A DNA stretch of 57,375 bases from positions 1 through 57,375 of IMG/VR virus record IMGVR_UViG_3300025671_000076. One strand, 5' to 3'. Shown here in pieces: positions 1-50,007 of this stretch. The DNA is from a virus. Taxonomy: Duplodnaviria > Caudoviricetes. Position numbers and translations under genes: made by a program. Numbering within the stretch: the stretch's first letter is position 1; every line of letters begins with the position of its first letter. The notes beneath the pieces were generated by a model. That model saw nothing but the letters and a program-made list of their open reading frames with translations. It had not been told where the DNA came from and did no database searches.

Positions 1-75
1 TTGCTCAATGTATGCTTTACAAACTTGTTTTTGCCCTTTGTCTAATTGAGGGACTTTTTTTGTTTGTGTCGTCAT
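1..75 (-). CDS. Early hypothetical protein, truncated by the window edge (MTTQTKKVPQLDKGQKQVCKAYIEQ...)
   Basis: Read manually: ATG at 75 preceded by AAAGGA; frame open to position 1. Confidence 0.6.
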   Translation of the reverse strand, partial: MTTQTKKVPQLDKGQKQVCKAYIEQ

Positions 76-372
76 TTGTTTTTTGTCCTTTGTTAAGTGT
101 TAATCTATAAAATATAGATTTAAAAAAGAGTTTAGTTATTTTTTAATTAATTGCAAATCTTTTATTTTTTTTATTTTTACTAAAAAAAATTCTTCCATAG
201 AGCCACGCACATTAAGATTTAGACCTCAATGCGACCTAGACATCATGGCAAATTTTTTAAATTTCCAACGAACTGAACTGGCGAAATTTTCCCAGCTGGA
301 ACTGGGTGCCAGTCCTTTACGATGGAATAACGAGGAATGCAAACGTAACGACAACGAGAACGAGGAACAGCA

Positions 373-726
373 TTAGAGATAAAACCCTCTCTTCAGTCTT
401 GTGACCTCAGCATGAATTTCTGTTAGCTTTCTTTCATCGCATCTATCGATGAACTGCTTGATCTCTTCTCTTTTCTTTTTGTTAGCTTCGTACTTTCTAG
501 CTTTGTTTTCATCTTGTACTTGGAAATGTGTTTCATTTTGCTCTGCCATTTTATTTTCCTCCTTTAAATAATAATTTAATTCATTGGCTGTTCGAAAAGT
601 TTTCCATTTAAAATTCCATCCTTTAGAATTTCTGATTACCGGAATCCATTCGTTGTTTTGATAGTCTTTGACTCTGTAGTCTCTGTTACTATAGTTTTCC
701 ATTTGTAATGTTGAGTATCTAGTCAT
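373..726 (-). CDS. Early hypothetical protein
   Basis: 117-aa ORF with AAAGGAG SD and an upstream sigma70-like promoter. Confidence 0.75.
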   Translation of the reverse strand: MTRYSTLQMENYSNRDYRVKDYQNNEWIPVIRNSKGWNFKWKTFRTANELNYYLKEENKMAEQNETHFQVQDENKARKYEANKKKREEIKQFIDRCDERKLTEIHAEVTRLKRGFYL

Positions 727-751
727 TTAATAGCTCCTTTGTTTTTTTAAA

Positions 752-779
752 TTAATATCACATCTGTCTCCTGCTGCAA
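752..779 (-). promoter_or_regulatory. Sigma70-like early promoter
   Basis: TTGCAG-N16-TATTAA with TG extension, upstream of the SD of 373..726. Confidence 0.55.
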
Positions 780-1085
780 GAAAAAAATTAAGAAAGGTAG
801 AACTTATGTACGCTGCCTTCAGGATCGCTGCTGGCCAGCTCTCTAGGAAAAGCACAGCAACCACGCCATTGTTCTTCAACGAGAAACGAGATTTGCTTTA
901 GAAACTCTACCTTCTCCTGAACTGGCGTCCCAGCCCCTAAGTCAAAGAAAGAAAGGAAAACCATTGACAACCAACGAGAAACGAGGAAAGGTAATGTGAA
1001 CTGCACCAGCTTCCGTTCCCAGCTGGTGTCTGGCGCCAGTCCCTGAACTGAAAAGTACGAAGGCTTCTACGAGAAACGAGAACGA

Positions 1086-1167
1086 GGATTAGGTGAGAGG
1101 TCTAAACAGGAGCTACTCTGACAAAAGACCTCTCGCCAAATCCTGTTGCCGTCGTTAGACGGCAACA
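1086..1167 (-). ncRNA. Candidate two-hairpin small RNA / 3' UTR element with an anti-SD loop
   Basis: 10-bp hairpin at 1144-1167 plus a long stem 1086-1103/1126-1143 enclosing AGUAGCUCCUGUUU. Confidence 0.5.
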
Positions 1168-1178
1168 AGTAAATTTAA

Positions 1179-1562
1179 TTACCAACTACAGTCGTAACCA
1201 ATCTCCTTACCATTCTGTAATTGTTCCTTACACCACTTGATAAATTCTTCATCTTGGGCTTTGTACTCTTTCACCTGTTCCTCTTGAAACTGTTGTCCCC
1301 AAAAGAAACCATCAGGTGCAAAGCAATCATAATAGCCACTCTTGACCTGTTCCTCTAGCCTCTTGACTATTTCCTCAGTGATTTTTACACCACCCTCGCC
1401 ACCGTTAAAACCAAGATCGAAAGAACCGTCGCCCTTTCTATCTTTCTGTTTTTCAAACTCACCTGCGAAGAACTGTTGTAGTCTTGCGTGTTTTCTCCAA
1501 TAAAAGTTTTCATGAACTTCGCCATTGCTATCACGAAAACCTGCGTATTGATCTAGTCCCAT
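1179..1562 (-). CDS. Conserved phage early hypothetical protein (MGLDQY...YWRKH family)
   Basis: Recognisable MGLDQY, YWRKH, GFFWG and terminal Y-x-x-SW motifs; strong SD AAAGGAG. Confidence 0.85.
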   Translation of the reverse strand: MGLDQYAGFRDSNGEVHENFYWRKHARLQQFFAGEFEKQKDRKGDGSFDLGFNGGEGGVKITEEIVKRLEEQVKSGYYDCFAPDGFFWGQQFQEEQVKEYKAQDEEFIKWCKEQLQNGKEIGYDCSW

Positions 1563-1595
1563 TTTTAACTCCTTTGTTATTTGTTAAACATCACA

Positions 1596-1623
1596 GTCTT
1601 ATCATACATGGGATAATTGTCAA
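1596..1623 (-). promoter_or_regulatory. Sigma70-like early promoter with TATCCCA box
   Basis: TTGACA-N16-TAAGAC with TG extension; TATCCCA next to the -35. Confidence 0.65.
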
Positions 1624-1802
1624 ACAAAAAAATTCACCGATCCATAAAGCATTTCCTGAACTGGTGCTGGCGCCAGGCCAGACAGGTAGTTCTCTGTATC
1701 CTGGAACATCATCACGAGAAAAACAACGAGGATCCAGAGAGCGTATCCAGTTAACTCAGGATAAAGAATGGCACAGAATATGAGGATAAAGATGGCAAAC
1801 AT
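1620..1802 (-). CDS. Small membrane protein (60 aa, starts MFAIFILIF)
   Basis: ATG at 1802 after CAGGAG SD; two hydrophobic stretches; overlaps repeat motifs. Confidence 0.5.
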   Translation of the reverse strand: MFAIFILIFCAILYPELTGYALWILVVFLVMMFQDTENYLSGLAPAPVQEMLYGSVNFFV

Positions 1803-1804
1803 AT

Positions 1805-2116
1805 CTACTCCTGCTTCGAACCAGCTGCCAGCTCCTGAGCTGCAGACTCTACGGCAAACCATGAGGTCCAATTCTTAAACGAGGCAGGCGAGAAAACGTC
1901 CTTGGGAAACAAGGACCCAACGCTAACTCCTGCAGCGTCAGCGGCTTCATCTAGATATTTCCAGATCTCTTCTTCATGTTCATTATAAAACGAGGTAGTG
2001 TCATCGTAATAAATTAAACCGGCGACTCCGCCTTCACATCCATGTTGAGCTATATCTGAAATGAGGAACTGCTCATGCAGTTCCCCTTCCTTTAACCATT
2101 CTTTTATCTTCCCCAT
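1805..2116 (-). CDS. Acidic early protein (HGCxGG...LIYYxDT family), possible DNA-mimic/anti-restriction protein
   Basis: Very D/E-rich 103-aa protein in the early region; motif recalled from phage early genes. Confidence 0.75.
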   Translation of the reverse strand: MGKIKEWLKEGELHEQFLISDIAQHGCEGGVAGLIYYDDTTSFYNEHEEEIWKYLDEAADAAGVSVGSLFPKDVFSPASFKNWTSWFAVESAAQELAAGSKQE

Positions 2117-2385
2117 GTGATTCCCTCCACATCTGTCTTAAACTTAACAATGTCACGTAGCTTTAAGTGTCGAAGTTTCTGTGGCTCGTTGTCGAGTAGC
2201 CCTTGACCCTTAAGTCGGCTGCCACTAGTAATGCGTACCCACATCTTTTCCGATTGCTTTTTGTCTTTAAACCATACGTAGACGTACTCACGCATCTTCG
2301 GCATTCGCTCTAGCTGTTTAATTTTGAAATATGTTTCTTTGCCGTGTTCGGGGCATGTGTACACAATGTTACTATCTTTTACCAT
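2104..2385 (-). CDS. DUF2314/YegJ-like hypothetical protein
   Basis: E-x-MWV...G-x-LDNEP...D-x-V-x-F pattern. Confidence 0.65.
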   Translation of the reverse strand: MVKDSNIVYTCPEHGKETYFKIKQLERMPKMREYVYVWFKDKKQSEKMWVRITSGSRLKGQGLLDNEPQKLRHLKLRDIVKFKTDVEGITWGR

Positions 2386-2471
2386 GATATCACCCCCGTT
2401 AAAGTTAGAATGACAAAGACCACCGAAAGCACTGTGGCTTCGGGTATTAAGTTGATTATTTTATTTTTCAT
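2379..2471 (-). CDS. 30-aa single-TM peptide (MKNKIINLIPEATVLSVVFVILTLTGVISW)
   Basis: Manual translation; AAAGGAG SD; stop overlaps the start of the next gene. Confidence 0.65.
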   Translation of the reverse strand: MKNKIINLIPEATVLSVVFVILTLTGVISW

Positions 2472-2489
2472 TTTTAACTCCTTTGTTGT

Positions 2490-2575
2490 TGCCGAGCAGT
2501 GAGAGAGAACATAACTAGCATACTAGTATATCGATAGCCCCTCATCTCACCCTAGGCTACGCTCGTTGCTCGACA
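2490..2575 (-). ncRNA. Structured 5' leader or small RNA
   Basis: Nested stems UGUCGAGCA/UGCUCGGCA, GUGAGA-GAG/CUCUCUCAC and ACUAG/CUAGU; G-U pairs favour the minus strand; starts just after a promoter. Confidence 0.5.
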
Positions 2576-2580
2576 TTACA

Positions 2581-2609
2581 TAGATAAGACCTCGTGGGAT
2601 AAATGTCAA
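2581..2609 (-). promoter_or_regulatory. Sigma70-like early promoter with TATCCCA box
   Basis: TTGACA-N17-TATCTA; TATCCCA next to the -35. Confidence 0.6.
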
Positions 2610-2904
2610 GAACTTTTTTTAAAAATTTTTTAGTAAGATCAGATGATCCTGAGCTGGCACGCCAGCTGGGGTCTGGTACCAGCTGCTACGCTGCAGGGGG
2701 GTTGGGCTAAACGAGAAACGAGAAAACGAGAAACGAGGATTTGAAACGAGAAAACGGCCACCGAAGATTAATCCGGTGGCCGACAAAGAGGCTAAAAATA
2801 CTAAGTGAGGTTTCGCGTACAATCTCCTCATCCGGATCGGGAGCGCCAGCTTTTTCTCACAAAGACTTCTTGCAGTTACGCTTCTATCACAACGAGGATC
2901 CGTG

Positions 2905-3321
2905 TCAAGAACTATTTTTCACCAGCTGCCTCCTGAGCTCTGGCCAGGCCAGGGACGGTACGGGGTCCGGTGTTTGGTAAACGAGAACGAGGGAACGAGA
3001 AAACGAGGATGGGGACGAGGGATCCACGCCACCGGACACTCTGTAAAGTTTCAATAGCCTCTGCAAGAGGGTCTGATGCAGAATAAATATATTACCACCA
3101 TGACGTTGATATTCATAAGCCCAAGCCATTTGGAATTTGGACAGTATCGGAAACTTGTCTTCTGTTGACTTCAATTCAATCCAAAAAGACTTAGAATCTA
3201 TACACCCATGAACATCTGGAATACCTTGTACTGTTGAGCTTTCTATCCTTGTAAAATGTGCGTTTTTTATATGTTGTTTAACTCTTTGAAAGAGTAAAGA
3301 TTCGCGTTTTTTTAAAGCCAT
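2905..3321 (-). CDS. VRR-NUC / Holliday-junction-resolvase-like PD-(D/E)XK nuclease
   Basis: RIES...GIPDV...WIELK...S-x-FQ-x-AW motifs. Confidence 0.85.
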   Translation of the reverse strand: MALKKRESLLFQRVKQHIKNAHFTRIESSTVQGIPDVHGCIDSKSFWIELKSTEDKFPILSKFQMAWAYEYQRHGGNIFILHQTLLQRLLKLYRVSGGVDPSSPSSFSRSLVLVYQTPDPVPSLAWPELRRQLVKNSS

Positions 3322-3325
3322 TTAT

Positions 3326-3493
3326 TTAAGACAAGGTACACCCAAAAAAGACACCCTGAACAGTAAGATTTTCACGTAAAACATCACACACTTCAAACAA
3401 ATCCATTCCTTTTTCTACAGGAAGTTCAGATAATAATTCTTTTGTTACAGGAATTAAATAATACATTTCGTTTAAGAAAACAATGTAGTTCAT
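3326..3493 (-). CDS. Hypothetical protein (55 aa, MNYIVFLNEMYYLIPVTKE...)
   Basis: Manual translation; TAATG coupling to the upstream gene; fills the gap. Confidence 0.6.
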   Translation of the reverse strand: MNYIVFLNEMYYLIPVTKELLSELPVEKGMDLFEVCDVLRENLTVQGVFFGCTLS

Positions 3494-3816
3494 TAATGAA
3501 TTACTTTTATGGACTGTATGACTGATGTTGGAATTATAGTTGTGTTACCAATATTCTCAAAAGTTTCATCTGTTTTAGATTTGATGTAATCAGTAAATAT
3601 TCTAGTCACTCCACCTTTCTGAGATACAAGATAACCTTTAGATACACAAGTAGGTAAGTTAGATTTCAATAGAGCTTTAGTGTCAGACCACCCTGCATCA
3701 CCTTCGATATCAAACCAATGTATTTCTACAAAAGGATAGTCAGCAATATTTTTACCGAGCTTTTTAGTATTTAAAGGAATTGTTTTTCTATAAATTTTTG
3801 GTTTTCTTTTTGCCAT
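3493..3816 (-). CDS. Conserved marine phage hypothetical protein
   Basis: VEI-x-W-x-DI-x-GD-x-GW...SKG-x-L...IP pattern; GAGG SD. Confidence 0.8.
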   Translation of the reverse strand: MAKRKPKIYRKTIPLNTKKLGKNIADYPFVEIHWFDIEGDAGWSDTKALLKSNLPTCVSKGYLVSQKGGVTRIFTDYIKSKTDETFENIGNTTIIPTSVIQSIKVIH

Positions 3817-3907
3817 TTTTAACCTCTACCTTTACAGTTCCAGTTGATACAAGCAGATGTGAGTTGTGTATTTGATTGAACACAGTAACCCATTGTCCAC
3901 TATTCAC
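3788..3907 (-). CDS. Possible small hypothetical protein (GTG start)
   Basis: Open frame bridging the terS stop and the next gene. Confidence 0.3.
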   Translation of the reverse strand: MNSGQWVTVFNQIHNSHLLVSTGTVKVEVKNGKKKTKNL

Positions 3908-4397
3908 TAACTTCTTCTGGTGTAACGTTAATGATATTCTTCGCTTCACCGATTTTTGATTCGAGTTCTGCAAAGCGTTTCTCAAGTTGTTCACGAGACA
4001 TACCCTCCAAAGAATTGTTAGTAATTTCTTTTTTATCAACGTACATTCCTGCTAGTTGTCCTGAACGATACTCAGCATTAATTGCTGATGCGTATTGTTT
4101 TGATTTAGCAGCATCGTCACCGAATTTCTCGAATCTTTTAAATGACCTCAACGGATTAGCATATTTGTTTTTAGCTTCCGCAATTTTCTTTTCTAGATAT
4201 CTTACAACATGTGGATTTCTATTTGGATTAGTTAATTTAGATGCAATCGTATGTGGATCTTTAGCTACATAGCCTGCTCTCTTAGCAGCTTCTGTTTTGC
4301 TGATTAGTCCATATTCAGCAACATAAATATCTACAAACTTCCTTTGTTTAGGAGTCAAATCGTGCATCGTTTTCAACACGTTAGGTTTTCCAGCCAT
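3900..4397 (-). CDS. terS: Terminase small subunit
   Basis: LTPKQRKFV...TEAAKRAGY...ASKL HTH signature and C-terminal G-x-Y-x-DKKEI; start moved to ATG 4397 after GAGGA. Confidence 0.85.
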   Translation of the reverse strand: MAGKPNVLKTMHDLTPKQRKFVDIYVAEYGLISKTEAAKRAGYVAKDPHTIASKLTNPNRNPHVVRYLEKKIAEAKNKYANPLRSFKRFEKFGDDAAKSKQYASAINAEYRSGQLAGMYVDKKEITNNSLEGMSREQLEKRFAELESKIGEAKNIINVTPEEVSE

Positions 4398-6175: not shown

Positions 6176-6607
6176 TTAATCGGTGCAGCTAAATATAGCT
6201 TGCCGCAGTTCATTAATAGTTTTCGTATGCTTCCTGCGTTCATCTCTATCTTTAGCTTTTCTAAGTTTTTCATATTCCTTAGTGTATTTTATATTCAAAT
6301 TTTGCTTTTTAGTAAAGAAAATATTTCCTCTCTCAAGAGCTTCTAAATACTTCATTCTTACGTATTTCGGATCCATTTCGGCCTGGAAACATACAAATTT
6401 AAAATCCTCACTGTTATTACAGAACCAGTCGTGAGCTTCACCTTTCAATACCGACTCCGTTCTATTCTGATTCGTAATCATAACATCTTCTAAGGCCATT
6501 GATATGACTGCTCGCCATATTCTAATTTCTGGATCTGGTGTGTTTTCAATTAGCTTTTCAGCTATTACTAAACCCATAACTTTTAAAACTTTTGTTGATA
6601 TATTCAT
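6176..6607 (-). CDS. Conserved phage hypothetical protein (possible transcription regulator)
   Basis: PE-x-R-x-WRAVI...A-x-x-WF...DF-x-x-VC-x-x-A-x-MDP pattern; GGAG SD. Confidence 0.75.
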   Translation of the reverse strand: MNISTKVLKVMGLVIAEKLIENTPDPEIRIWRAVISMALEDVMITNQNRTESVLKGEAHDWFCNNSEDFKFVCFQAEMDPKYVRMKYLEALERGNIFFTKKQNLNIKYTKEYEKLRKAKDRDERRKHTKTINELRQAIFSCTD

Positions 6608-46299: not shown

Positions 46300-47217
46300 T
46301 TATGTTGGTAAGTTTCCGTTACCAAATACACATCTTGGATCAGAGAATCCAAAAGAGTATCTTTCTCTAGCTTTAAATCTAACATTTCCTGTATCGAAAT
46401 CACCTTCCATAGCAGTTTTAATTGGACTTCTAATGAAGTGTTTAAAACCGTTTGGAGCATCAGTCAAGATGAAGTATGAATCAGTGTCAGTTAAGAAGTT
46501 ATTAACTCTGTAACCTTCAGGAATCATTCCCATGTTTGCGATAGCATTGATGTCGTTATCAGCTGTGCCAACTCTTTGAGGAGACTTCATTAGTCTTTCA
46601 GCAGTAAATTGTAATTCTTTTGGAATTATCATTTTTCTGCCCATAAGAGCTATTTTTAAGCCTCTTTCATCAACGAAACCAGAGATATCGATTAACGATT
46701 GCTCTAAAGATGTTTCGTTAAGGTCAGCAGCAGTTGCTAAAACGTTCGAGAAAGTTCCACCAGTTGCAAGTGGGTGATTGTTCGCAATTAATGGAACACC
46801 GTCACCGCCATTGAAACCAGTAGCTCTTTGAGCGTTGTTAAGCACTGATGCAGCTTTAACTTGTTTAGTGTTAGACATAGATCTTGCAAGAGCTCTTGTG
46901 TATCTTGCAGCTAATCTATCATACAGATTATCTTCAATAGCTTCTTCAGTAATTGAGAATGCTAATGCGATAGTTTCGTGTGAGTATCTAGCAGTGAAAG
47001 TTTCAGTTGCTTGATCAAACACTACTCCAGCACCTTCTTGTTTAACTGGTGCAGAAGCGAAACCACTTAACATTACTTCTTCTTCAAAAGCTCTGTCAGA
47101 TGTTTCAGCTGGGAAAATTTCCGCGTGCTGATTTTCGTATCTGTTATATTCCAGGCCGAATAAAGCATTCAAACCCGGCTCTAGTTCTTTAACTAGTTGT
47201 GATCGTGATATTGCCAT
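46300..47217 (-). CDS. Major capsid protein (HK97 fold, Mu gpT-like family)
   Basis: MAISRSQLVKELEPGLNALFGLEY...EEAIEDNLY...GDFDTGNVRFKARERYSFG; follows scaffold, precedes terminator. Confidence 0.92.
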   Translation of the reverse strand: MAISRSQLVKELEPGLNALFGLEYNRYENQHAEIFPAETSDRAFEEEVMLSGFASAPVKQEGAGVVFDQATETFTARYSHETIALAFSITEEAIEDNLYDRLAARYTRALARSMSNTKQVKAASVLNNAQRATGFNGGDGVPLIANNHPLATGGTFSNVLATAADLNETSLEQSLIDISGFVDERGLKIALMGRKMIIPKELQFTAERLMKSPQRVGTADNDINAIANMGMIPEGYRVNNFLTDTDSYFILTDAPNGFKHFIRSPIKTAMEGDFDTGNVRFKARERYSFGFSDPRCVFGNGNLPT

Positions 47218-47893: not shown

Positions 47894-48364
47894 TTAGTTT
47901 TTATTTCTACCACCAAAGGTAACTCTACTTTGCCTATCAATATTGATCGGCATTTCAGGTCGTTGTTCCTTCATTAGATCATTATCAACCGCGGTCATTT
48001 GATCTTGAGTAATTCTATTGAAATACTCGGCACGGCTTTTTAATATCTCTTCAGGTATCCTTGCCAACACAAGGCCTCCAATTCCAATACATCCTGCATA
48101 TTGTCCCTGCGAAATTGTCGGATATTTGTGAATATCAGCTGAGTTTTTAATCTCCTCTGCTCTTACAAATTCCCAACCTTCTCTGAATTTTTTAGTTACA
48201 TTAGCTGTATCCTCAAATCCAGCCACACTCGTTCTTATCCAACGATGGGCATAACCCTGTGGTGCAGGTGGTGCATCCAAACTGGATGGTGGAGCCCAGG
48301 CACTAGGTTTCTTTTCAGTATTTCTAGTTTCTGACTCGCGTGAGGTTCTTTTTATATTATCCAT
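47894..48364 (-). CDS. Conserved head-module protein
   Basis: W-x-PPSSLDAPP-x-P-x-G-x-x-HRWIR...REGWE-x-V...GGL-x-LARIP. Confidence 0.8.
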   Translation of the reverse strand: MDNIKRTSRESETRNTEKKPSAWAPPSSLDAPPAPQGYAHRWIRTSVAGFEDTANVTKKFREGWEFVRAEEIKNSADIHKYPTISQGQYAGCIGIGGLVLARIPEEILKSRAEYFNRITQDQMTAVDNDLMKEQRPEMPINIDRQSRVTFGGRNKN

Positions 48365-49331
48365 TTGCATTCTCCTTCACGTATTTTGCGTATTCCTCTA
48401 GTGGCACCCCTAGTTTTTTAGCGATAACTATTTGTGACTTGGTGAGTTTCACTGATCGGCGTCCGCTTTGGTTTCTTTGTGCAGAAGCAACAGTCTGGAC
48501 GGGTTTCTTTTGCTCCTGTGGTTGACTAAATTTATGAGGAAAGTTTTCCTTCATAACTTTATCAATTTCATTATAATACTCATCACTCTCTGCGTCAAAC
48601 CCCTGCTCGACAAGATCTTGGTGAGCTTGAAACGCTGCACTCGTCATGATTCTATCTGAACCAAACCATTCATTCTTCTCAGCCCAGCTTTTTGCTTTGC
48701 TAGAAGGTTGTGCGTAAGTAGGATTTTGAGGTTGTTGAGTTTGTTCAGCTGCTTGAGATTTTGCTTTTTCTTCTTTAGCTTCCTCTTCTGCAGCAGTTAT
48801 TTTAACTTTTTCAGCTTCAACAGCTAATTGAGCAATTCTTGAGTTAGCTTCAGCTATTTTATCTGCATCTTGTTCAGCAATAGCATCTCTCAATACAGCT
48901 TTAGCTTTCTCCTGTTCAGCAGATACTCTTGCTGAAAATTGTTCAATATAACTTTTGCTTGTTTTAGAGAATCTAGTATTAGTGTTATCTAATTCTTTTT
49001 TAATGCTTTGTGCATAATCGATAGCAGCTTTTTCTCTTCTTTCAGCTTCTCTAACTTTAAAAGTTAACTTATCAATTCTTCGTTTTACTTTTTCTGAGAC
49101 ATCAGATAAATCATCAACCTTTAATTCTGATTTAGATTCTTCTGTTTGTTCAACTGTGATTCCTTCAATACCTTCTTTTTTAGGTTCTGTGTAACCTAAA
49201 TCAACTTCTTCGTTAGGTAATTGAGGTTCAGTAGATTCTGTTTTTTGTTCTTCAACTTCTACTGATTGTTCGTTTACACCGTCAGTGTCTAATTCCACCT
49301 GTGGTGATTTTTTAGTTTCTTCTAGTTCCAT
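48357..49331 (-). CDS. Capsid scaffolding protein
   Basis: Acidic coiled coil; W-x-x-KN-x-WFG; C-terminal IAKKLGVPLEEYAK. Confidence 0.8.
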   Translation of the reverse strand: MELEETKKSPQVELDTDGVNEQSVEVEEQKTESTEPQLPNEEVDLGYTEPKKEGIEGITVEQTEESKSELKVDDLSDVSEKVKRRIDKLTFKVREAERREKAAIDYAQSIKKELDNTNTRFSKTSKSYIEQFSARVSAEQEKAKAVLRDAIAEQDADKIAEANSRIAQLAVEAEKVKITAAEEEAKEEKAKSQAAEQTQQPQNPTYAQPSSKAKSWAEKNEWFGSDRIMTSAAFQAHQDLVEQGFDAESDEYYNEIDKVMKENFPHKFSQPQEQKKPVQTVASAQRNQSGRRSVKLTKSQIVIAKKLGVPLEEYAKYVKENANG

Positions 49332-49358
49332 AGTAGCTCCTGTTTTAATTGCGTATGT

Positions 49359-49826
49359 TTAGTATGCGTGCAAGATATCCTCCGGATTGTTAATCTTAGC
49401 GATTATCTCGTCATCGTTTAGAATACGAACTTCTCCGCCTTCTATTTTAAATCTAGATCCAGCGTACCTTCCAAAGATAACCCAATCTCCTTTTTGACAC
49501 CAAGGTCCGTTAGGAAATTTTTCTTTGTCTTTGTAGCATAGATCCCCCATCTTCAATACGTATGCACATACGGTTGTCATCTGTATTGTTTCTTGAGTTG
49601 TATCAGCAAGATATAGACCGCCTTTAGTTTTTTTAGGACCAGCATATGGTAAAACTAAAATACGATAACCTGTAGGAGATGGAAGCCTGTCAAGAAGATT
49701 TTTATCCTTCTCTACATTCTTTGCATCTAATACGGTATTTTCTATTTCGTCTCGTGATTTGTAAGCATTAAGTAATGCTTCTGTTTTTTTAGGTACTTCC
49801 TTTGAAGTCTCTAAGTTCTTTGTCAT
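49359..49826 (-). CDS. groES: GroES-like co-chaperonin
   Basis: P-x-GYRILV...KTKGG-x-x-L...GDWVIFGRYAG...RILNDDEIIA. Confidence 0.88.
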   Translation of the reverse strand: MTKNLETSKEVPKKTEALLNAYKSRDEIENTVLDAKNVEKDKNLLDRLPSPTGYRILVLPYAGPKKTKGGLYLADTTQETIQMTTVCAYVLKMGDLCYKDKEKFPNGPWCQKGDWVIFGRYAGSRFKIEGGEVRILNDDEIIAKINNPEDILHAY

Positions 49827-50007
49827 TTAGTTGCTCCTGTTTTTTCTGCAGGTCATTAAGATCCTGAAGCAAAGACTCTAGGCCTTTGATTTGTCCTCTA
49901 ATATAATGAAGTTGCTCTAATTTGTCAACAGAGTACACAAGAGTATCTTTAAGAGAATCTATTCTCTTATCAACTAGTCTTTTTATTAATTGATAGTCTA
50001 ATTCCAT
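49789..50007 (-). CDS. Small conserved head-module protein
   Basis: Y-x-x-GQI-x-GL pattern upstream of GroES. Confidence 0.75.
   Translation of the reverse strand: MELDYQLIKRLVDKRIDSLKDTLVYSVDKLEQLHYIRGQIKGLESLLQDLNDLQKKQEQLNDKELRDFKGST

Follow-up and report, generated by a model that had tools for sequence, protein, structure and literature searches.

A conserved phage hairpin with a fixed loop complementary to the start sites of two predicted head genes: a candidate antisense RNA

Directly downstream of a small gene near one end of a tailed-phage genome, a hairpin exposes in its loop a segment complementary to the start site of a gene lying beside the major capsid gene. The question raised by this locus is whether the hairpin acts as an RNA and, if so, whether its loop is aimed at the head-assembly genes. 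An earlier note, based on the DNA letters, had proposed a phage-encoded small RNA that acts on these genes; here the hairpin, its relatives, its predicted targets and the competing readings are considered in turn.

Gene layout and the hairpin

The window, i.e., the whole stretch of DNA that was analysed, is an entire viral record of 57,375 bases, linear and with a completeness estimate of 95%. Nearly all its long open reading frames (ORFs) lie on the minus strand, in the order 792-aa gene, portal, GroES-like gene, 324-aa gene, major capsid, tail and replication genes, and small genes (Table 1). The encoded portal protein shares 64% identity with its counterpart in Pelagibacter phage HTVC023P, in which an annotated large terminase (495 aa) occupies the slot of the 792-aa ORF, and relatives match this ORF at 41–53% identity. 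The last 4 kb of the minus-strand order have a higher G+C content, and hairpins, palindromes and CUCGUU(U)CUCGUU repeats abound there. The cut of the linear record falls between the small-gene region and the 792-aa gene (ends 1 and 57375). Relatives G006, G007 and G009 are contiguous across this point and G007 adds about 2.6 kb of small genes, which fits the completeness estimate. The 48 kb that the earlier note placed between hairpin and head genes is an artefact of this cut, and in the contiguous relatives the element and the GroES-like gene share a strand, the element being 9.4–10.9 kb further upstream. In two further relatives (G004 and G005) the homologue of gene 1179..1562 is opposite in strand to the head genes, so that the early region is inverted with respect to the window.

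The gene following the GroES-like gene had been labelled scaffold. Its position next to the capsid gene agrees with this label, but the other leads are weak, namely phrog_28737 (unknown function) and Atlas scaffolding-cluster leads of 0.86–0.87, with no Pfam family. The name is therefore a positional guess, and the gene is called scaffold-like here. Gene 1179..1562, behind which the hairpin is found, has 487 relatives in the viral collection, and the element accompanies it in only eight of 80 fetched loci.

Table 1. Features of the window and forms of the hairpin element in related loci
Feature	Position	Strand	Remarks
CUCGUU(U)CUCGUU repeat tract	1064..1088	minus	directly 3' of the hairpin
Conserved RNA hairpin (very probable)	1085..1144	minus	arms 1126-1144 (5') and 1085-1103 (3'); 22-nt loop 1104-1125
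Invariant 11-nt loop core UAGCUCCUGUU	1105..1115	minus	part of the 14 nt (1104-1117) complementary to the start sites
Separate 9-bp hairpin (GUUGCCGUC uaac GACGGCAAC)	1145..1166	minus	immediately behind the stop codon of gene 1179..1562
127-aa gene of unknown function	1179..1562	minus	no family; element within its 3' untranslated region here
TTGACA of a sigma-70-like promoter	1618..1623	minus	read by eye; upstream of gene 1179..1562
Small genes	~8000 down to 373	minus	end of the minus-strand gene order
Major capsid gene	46300..47217	minus
Scaffold-like gene, 324 aa, predicted target	48357..49331	minus	between the GroES-like and major capsid genes
Scaffold-like start site, AAACAGGAGCUACU + AUG	49329..49345	minus	14/14 to loop; rank 1 of 81, -16.3 kcal/mol
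GroES-like co-chaperonin gene, 155 aa, predicted target	49359..49826	minus	Pfam Cpn10, E 3.4e-11; PHROG co-chaperonin GroES, E 5e-17
GroES-like start site, AAACAGGAGCAACU AA AUG	49824..49842	minus	13/14 to loop; rank 2 of 81, -16.0 kcal/mol
792-aa ORF	54984-57362		matches neither a Pfam nor a PHROG family; immediately precedes the portal gene
Form V1			loop ends ..GUUAU; L258-261
Form V2			5' loop half changed; L262, L264, L269, L270, L272, L274, L278, L373
Form V3			quite different stem GUGUGAAUC/GGGUUCACAC, 17-nt loop; L212-214, L331, L337, L349, L350
Forms V4-V6			stem GGUAGCUC(A/G)A(C/U)/GUUGGGCUACC, loops of 31-37 nt; L006, L012, L069, L072, L287-294, L298, L303, L304, L352

The minus-strand stem-loop is present as described beforehand, its two arms (1085-1103 and 1126-1144) closing the 22-nt loop. 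The folding energy of a 126-nt stretch is -50.8 kcal/mol for the minus strand (z -6.8, with none of 200 shuffles as good) and -52.5 kcal/mol for the plus strand, both strands folding well in the window genome. The interval first assigned to the hairpin, 1086-1167, covers the element but also takes in the second, separate hairpin at 1145-1166, which shows compensatory changes in locus L005 and is confined to the closest lineage; in other lineages a different hairpin stands in front of the element. The core UAGCUCCUGUU appears in the loop of the window copy as GAGUAGCUCCUGUUU, part of the loop may fold on itself (CAG/CUG), and opening the complementary segment costs 4.1 kcal/mol. On the 3' side the repeat tract trails the element in most relatives, and it also trails terminator-like hairpins at 2782-2755 and 1916-1898; the copy at 1064..1088 could serve as the U-rich tail of a terminator or as a rut-like stretch. 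The element itself was considered as an intrinsic (Rho-independent) terminator and rejected as such, given a 22-nt loop in place of the usual 3–8 nt, a tail (UCGUUCUCGUUUCUCGU) interrupted by C and G, and a terminator scan that made no call at the hairpin; the scan lists two other minus-strand hairpins, followed by UUUUCUCG. Searches for known RNAs returned no Rfam 15 match over the whole window at gathering scores, four weak snoRNA/sRNA matches over 1-3200 at E up to 5 (none at the hairpin), and no tRNA or tmRNA gene in the window with ARAGORN.

The surrounding early region holds further elements of its own. Pyrimidine-rich repeats with a period of 6–7 nt, located in minus-strand RNA at 353-366, 874-891, 969-986, 1064-1088, 2706-2769 and 2980-3026, trail early hairpins, three of the copies in the window being 95 nt apart. 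The repeat unit varies by lineage, CUCGUU in the window and CCCAUUU, CCACAAG or GAUCCCU in relatives (L006-L013, L069, L287-L294), and these repeats could extend terminator U-tracts or act as Rho or protein sites. In loci L007-L013, which belong to lineages without the element, the 0–450 nt following the homologue of gene 1179..1562 contain runs of long hairpins whose stems (GAUCCCUGGUCCAUUG ... CAAUGGACCUGGGAUCAG) hardly vary and whose loops differ widely. A separate 16-nt complementarity joins 283-298, a palindromic element downstream of gene 373..726, to 47106-47121, at about codons 33–38 of the major capsid gene; both sides are partly conserved in relatives, and with nine inverted 16-mer pairs in the window chance is a possible source.

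Conservation of the element in related phages

The exact 23-mer of stem and loop has no match in the viral collection, because close relatives carry one extra T in the loop. A 17-mer of the loop is found in 48 stretches of this collection, 40 of which have the same inner hairpin (GGUCU-loop-AGACC, in 25 distinct versions) on different outer stems, and pattern scans and look-ups recovered the further forms listed in Table 1. The core UAGCUCCUGUU, which also lies within a 14-nt segment GAGUAGCUCCUGUU (1105-1118) common to the canonical form and V1-V3, is unchanged on at least six stem scaffolds and in phages whose portal identity falls as low as about 61%, while the remaining loop and the whole stem differ between forms. 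Each genome has a single copy. The exact 22-nt loop has no match in the genomes of 185,579 species and therefore gives no host or prophage clue, and among GenBank phages neither megablast of two window regions nor blastn of the hairpin region gave a relevant match.

The inner stem varies as a base-paired structure would. In an alignment of 59 matches (21 distinct sequences) fitted to the covariance model itself, two-sided changes occur in four of its ten pairs. Of 210 cells over the 21 distinct sequences, 96.2% pair, a level that none of 500 shuffles attains and that compares with 28–50% in slid controls. Pairs were also counted by script, since a MAFFT alignment had misplaced a T-run. This count shows double changes in the ten inner pairs (A-U/U-A and A-U/C-G/G-C) and 26 G.U pairs that fit the gene-sense strand only, versus two that favour the other strand, these two being the window copy and its nearest relative. 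This bias argues for a structure that acts as RNA of the minus, gene-sense strand, and the alternative that a plus-strand copy is a decoy for a translational repressor finds no support in it. On the window, covariance model R1 scores 66.3 bits on the minus strand (E 1.7e-18) and 24.7 bits on the plus strand. We hold with high confidence that the hairpin is a structured, conserved RNA element.

How this RNA would be made appears to differ between lineages. In V4/V5 (8/8 loci) and V6 (3/3 shown) the hairpin is preceded by a sigma-70-like promoter whose end is 7 nt away from the first stem base. This promoter consists of an A-rich tract and TTGACA/TTGACT-N17-18-TATATA/TATAGA/TATGCA/TATATC, and a pyrimidine-rich repeat stands 3' of the stem; to judge by this arrangement, the element in V4-V6 is a stand-alone, promoter-driven candidate small-RNA gene. 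In the window and the other canonical copies it is found 3' of another hairpin or of the stop codon of the 127-aa family, and thus looks like part of a 3' untranslated region. Neither a dedicated promoter nor a canonical terminator can be recognised for the window copy. The putative promoter at 1618..1623 is the probable source of a hairpin-carrying transcript; a promoter scan of 1-3400 gave no minus-strand promoter, and the TTGACA-type promoters of that region were found by eye. Four RNA-library runs were mapped to 1-4000, where cover of the hairpin bin is 0–3.6 (few unstranded contigs, with DNA carry-over possible) and that of the neighbouring gene is 3.6–17.6 in three runs and 1.0–3.3 in run X10. 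A single contig spans the hairpin (run X5, from a variant), these contigs carrying neither strand nor ends. The runs found contain 20–37% of sampled words, and low cover of the hairpin is not counted against it.

Predicted targets and the start-site motif

The complementarity that first drew attention to the loop is as the earlier note gave it. The segment AAACAGGAGCTACT is exact at 1104-1117 (plus strand) and 49332-49345 (minus strand), matching 14/14 before the scaffold-like AUG and 16/17 when the UG of that codon is included. At the GroES-like start site (49829-49842, minus strand) 13/14 match, with one mismatch to AAACAGGAGCTACT, and 8-nt overlaps exist with the start sites of 373..726 (AGGAGCTA) and 6176..6607 (GGAGCTAC). 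The concern that equally long matches are common proves justified for length alone, the window containing 58 inverted (and 125 direct) pairs of exact 14-mers, but such matches are rare against the 81 start-site-like places. No free shuffle of the loop in 2000 reaches 14 nt there, and 2/2000 do so with CTCCT held, compared with 9/2000 shuffled loops that reach at least 14 nt somewhere in the sense transcriptome. Allowing up to two mismatches, AAACAGGAGCTACT has seven matches in the window against a mean of 0.67 in 100 shuffles. The 14-nt match is non-trivial because of its context, that is, the conserved hairpin, the fixed core, the promoters, the target ranks and the co-absence described below.

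By duplex energy, the two head-gene start sites rank first and second among 19,115 sense-strand sliding windows. When duplex energy is combined with the opening costs of both partners, their values of -16.3 and -16.0 kcal/mol compare with a median of -0.7 kcal/mol among the 81 places, and the third-ranked start site is that of the gene just downstream, 373..726 (-13.0 kcal/mol). RNAcofold of hairpin and start site together was tried and found uninformative, as its nested model has no way of retaining the stem once the loop is paired. Among the start sites of the window, the word ACAGGAGC is present at only these two. It also appears in frame, followed by AAACCCGUCCA, at 48512-48519 in the 3' part of the scaffold-like ORF, where it is conserved, and around 36597 of genome G009 the ACAGGAGC-AAACCCGUCCA word matches the loop complement at 13/14; the in-frame word may be a further pairing site or simply coding.

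The same two genes are preferred in relatives. All 12 loci ranked place the GroES-like gene and the next gene (320–342 aa) in the top three, ten of them at ranks 1–2, counts that are not independent since these related loci represent about seven lineages with both element and head genes. GroES takes third place in the V6 lineage when opening costs are included. A plain duplex scan also finds coding sites at -21 to -24 kcal/mol, and in the genome-wide duplex ranking the GroES site is 9th in G007 and 3rd in G009, the scaffold site 2nd and 8th, respectively. Both sites keep 9–14 contiguous nt in all element-bearing loci examined, each lineage has at least 12 contiguous nt at one or both, and one relative has 14/14 at both. 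The core UAGCUCCUGUU is the complement of AACAGGAGCUA, a word that recurs at the scaffold-like start site of every element-bearing genome, and the invariant part of the loop coincides with the part that is complementary to the start sites.

Covariation of loop and target was looked for in these relatives and proved thin. A single compensatory difference was found, G:C to U:A between lineages: V4/V6 loops have U for the canonical G, and their GroES start site (AAACAGGAGCUAA-AUG) has A for the canonical C or U, the pairing there running over 13 contiguous nt, a mismatch and then the U of AUG, and in V4 also its G. The core never varies, and start-site positions 11–14 drift (12/14 in several lineages) with the loop unchanged. 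Since the short intergenic stretches around the start sites are conserved in their entirety, no RNA partner is needed to account for the conservation of these sites. Two early genes carry an identical 17-nt start-site cassette (TTTTTAACTCCTTTGTT, plus strand, at 1562-1578 and 2471-2487); as they share it without a known partner RNA, shared start sites can also arise by duplication.

A second line of comparison comes from phages that lack the element. In the complete genomes G004 and G005 and those of the cultured phages HTVC023P and HTVC027P there is neither a core in a hairpin nor an ACAGGAGC start site, the start sites of GroES and the next gene being of other types, and a search of G004 and G005 for an analogous anti-start-site sequence gave only AT-rich background matches of 9–13 nt. 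Four loci with 9.5–10 kb upstream of the portal gene on record are likewise without the element. For one of them, L255, both start sites are on record, of another type and without ACAGGAGC, as are the start sites of its clade mates L250, L325, L343, L362 and L368 (a comparison of start sites only, apart from their upstream region). Thus, element and motif are present together and absent together among the relatives examined, in agreement with the earlier proposal. A quick portal tree, built from 33 sources hand-picked from about 160 portal loci with at least 600 aligned residues in every row, places the element-less clade and HTVC023P between the V4/V6 clade and the canonical/V2/V3 clade. It follows from this placement, in a small sample and a single gene tree, that there were two or more joint changes of element state and start-site type, or that modules were exchanged.

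Readings of the element and known systems

The reading that we favour, with moderate confidence, is that of a c4-like antisense RNA masking the start sites of the GroES-like and scaffold-like genes. Host-type promoters of the small-gene region would produce the RNA, in the window as the untranslated 3' end of the gene 1179..1562 mRNA and in other lineages from a promoter of its own. At the GroES-like gene and at the scaffold-like gene beside it, 9–11 kb downstream on the same strand, the loop would pair over 12–16 nt that take in the Shine-Dalgarno sequence, the spacer and the start codon. With the ribosome landing site covered, translation would be lowered or delayed until late mRNA outnumbers the RNA. 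The element would probably be a regulatory small RNA that sets the timing or the strength of head-gene translation, and holding back head assembly early in infection is its proposed purpose; we infer accumulation of the RNA, its pairing in the cell, the direction of repression and the timing. The original proposal of a small RNA acting on the head genes is partly supported, namely by an RNA structure on the minus strand, by a loop conserved exactly over the anti-start-site segment, and by a promoter of its own in some lineages. The claim that the head genes are its targets is strengthened by their standing as the best predicted ones in seven lineages and by a start-site motif that comes and goes with the element. 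The same-strand position fits action within one long read-through transcript as well as action in trans. A more specific version, a small-RNA timer in which a hairpin RNA made early by the host polymerase titrates the ribosome sites of co-chaperonin and scaffold until late transcripts exceed it, and which was kept in several lineages and lost together with the target motif in others, is put forward tentatively.

A fixed loop may instead bind a protein or another host factor, or serve as an element of processing, stability or termination, its complementarity then arising incidentally from an anti-Shine-Dalgarno-like CUCCU. A constant loop on a changing stem also marks protein-bound hairpins, the element is located at 3' ends of early genes with U/C-rich repeats behind it, as behind terminator-like hairpins, and the drift of start-site positions 11–14, to which the loop does not respond, suits such a site. 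This reading is nonetheless unlikely: complementarity and invariant core stop at almost the same point, relatives that lack the element also lack the start-site motif, shuffles with CTCCT held seldom reproduce the match, and for a terminator the loops of 22–34 nt are atypical and drew no call in the scan. A small RNA aimed at host transcripts (or rRNA/tRNA), which the phage start sites merely resemble, would explain why the core is conserved beyond either phage start site, and phage small RNAs acting on host mRNAs are known, according to a 2025 review (PMC12197685). The two phage sites are, however, the best ones per phage locus and their motif co-occurs with the element, which renders a host target improbable. 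The idea of a DNA-level element, either a protein that recognises one 14-bp duplex word wherever it occurs, at three positions, or a single-stranded DNA hairpin used in replication or packaging, draws on the threefold occurrence of the word in duplex DNA and on the equally good folding of either strand in the window genome. It is highly improbable in view of the G.U pairs, which favour one strand by 26 to 2, of the V4-V6 promoter, which is placed for a transcription start at the base of the hairpin, and of the word itself, which takes the Shine-Dalgarno position of both genes, a place that points to translation and not to a promoter. That a functionless repeated-element hairpin matches by chance, for which the frequency of exact 14-mers in an AT-rich genome (the 58 inverted pairs) and the 10–13-nt background matches to start sites in relatives could be cited, is very hard to credit beside a core kept over at least six scaffolds and portal identities to about 61%, the covariation and the shuffle controls.

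If the antisense reading is true, the element would be a conserved RNA regulator of virion morphogenesis in an ecologically dominant and very abundant aquatic phage lineage, and in its timer version it would represent a post-transcriptional early-to-late switch in lytic phages. Term searches of the main texts of papers on HTVC023P-type phages gave no mention of noncoding or small RNA, intergenic elements or promoters, and the available part of a 2025 review of phage small RNAs lists none acting in trans on head-assembly genes of lytic phages (PMC12197685). Being a compact promoter-hairpin module with a defined seed of 11–14 nt and two defined targets, the proposed regulator is directly testable.

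Among known systems, the PeSL modules of T4-type phages combine a promoter and a stem-loop between small early genes and act as recombination and regulatory cassettes. The early region of the window likewise contains repeated modules of promoter-like, palindromic and short-repeat character, whereas PeSL are not known to carry a conserved loop word for late-gene start sites and the present element is single-copy in each genome. RNA-OUT of IS10, Sar of P22 and OOP of lambda are cis-antisense RNAs, transcribed opposite their targets and fully complementary to them. They resemble the element in being short stem-loops whose loop initiates pairing at the translation start region of the target, and differ from it in that the element is encoded 9–11 kb away, on the same strand and with partial complementarity. 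In the Staphylococcus RNAs RNAIII and RsaE, a pyrimidine-rich hairpin loop pairs with the Shine-Dalgarno region of several mRNAs, and the C-rich, anti-Shine-Dalgarno word in the loop is a shared trait. These RNAs are cellular, unrelated in sequence and have a shorter seed (UCCC), the predicted pairing of the element spanning 12–16 nt that begin ahead of the Shine-Dalgarno sequence and reach into the start codon; the comparison here covered Rfam, which gave no match at the hairpin.

The closest parallel is the c4 RNA of phages P1 and P7, which the review describes as phage-encoded and pairing around a ribosome binding site to block translation (PMC12197685). The c4 RNA serves antirepressor control and the immunity of temperate phages, whereas the element has two predicted targets in head assembly, in phages related to the lytic HTVC023P type; it also has one loop, c4 two. 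The two differ in sequence and model as well, since Rfam, which includes a C4 antisense RNA family, gave nothing at the hairpin. What they have in common is a position on the same strand as the downstream target and complementary segments displayed in hairpin loops.
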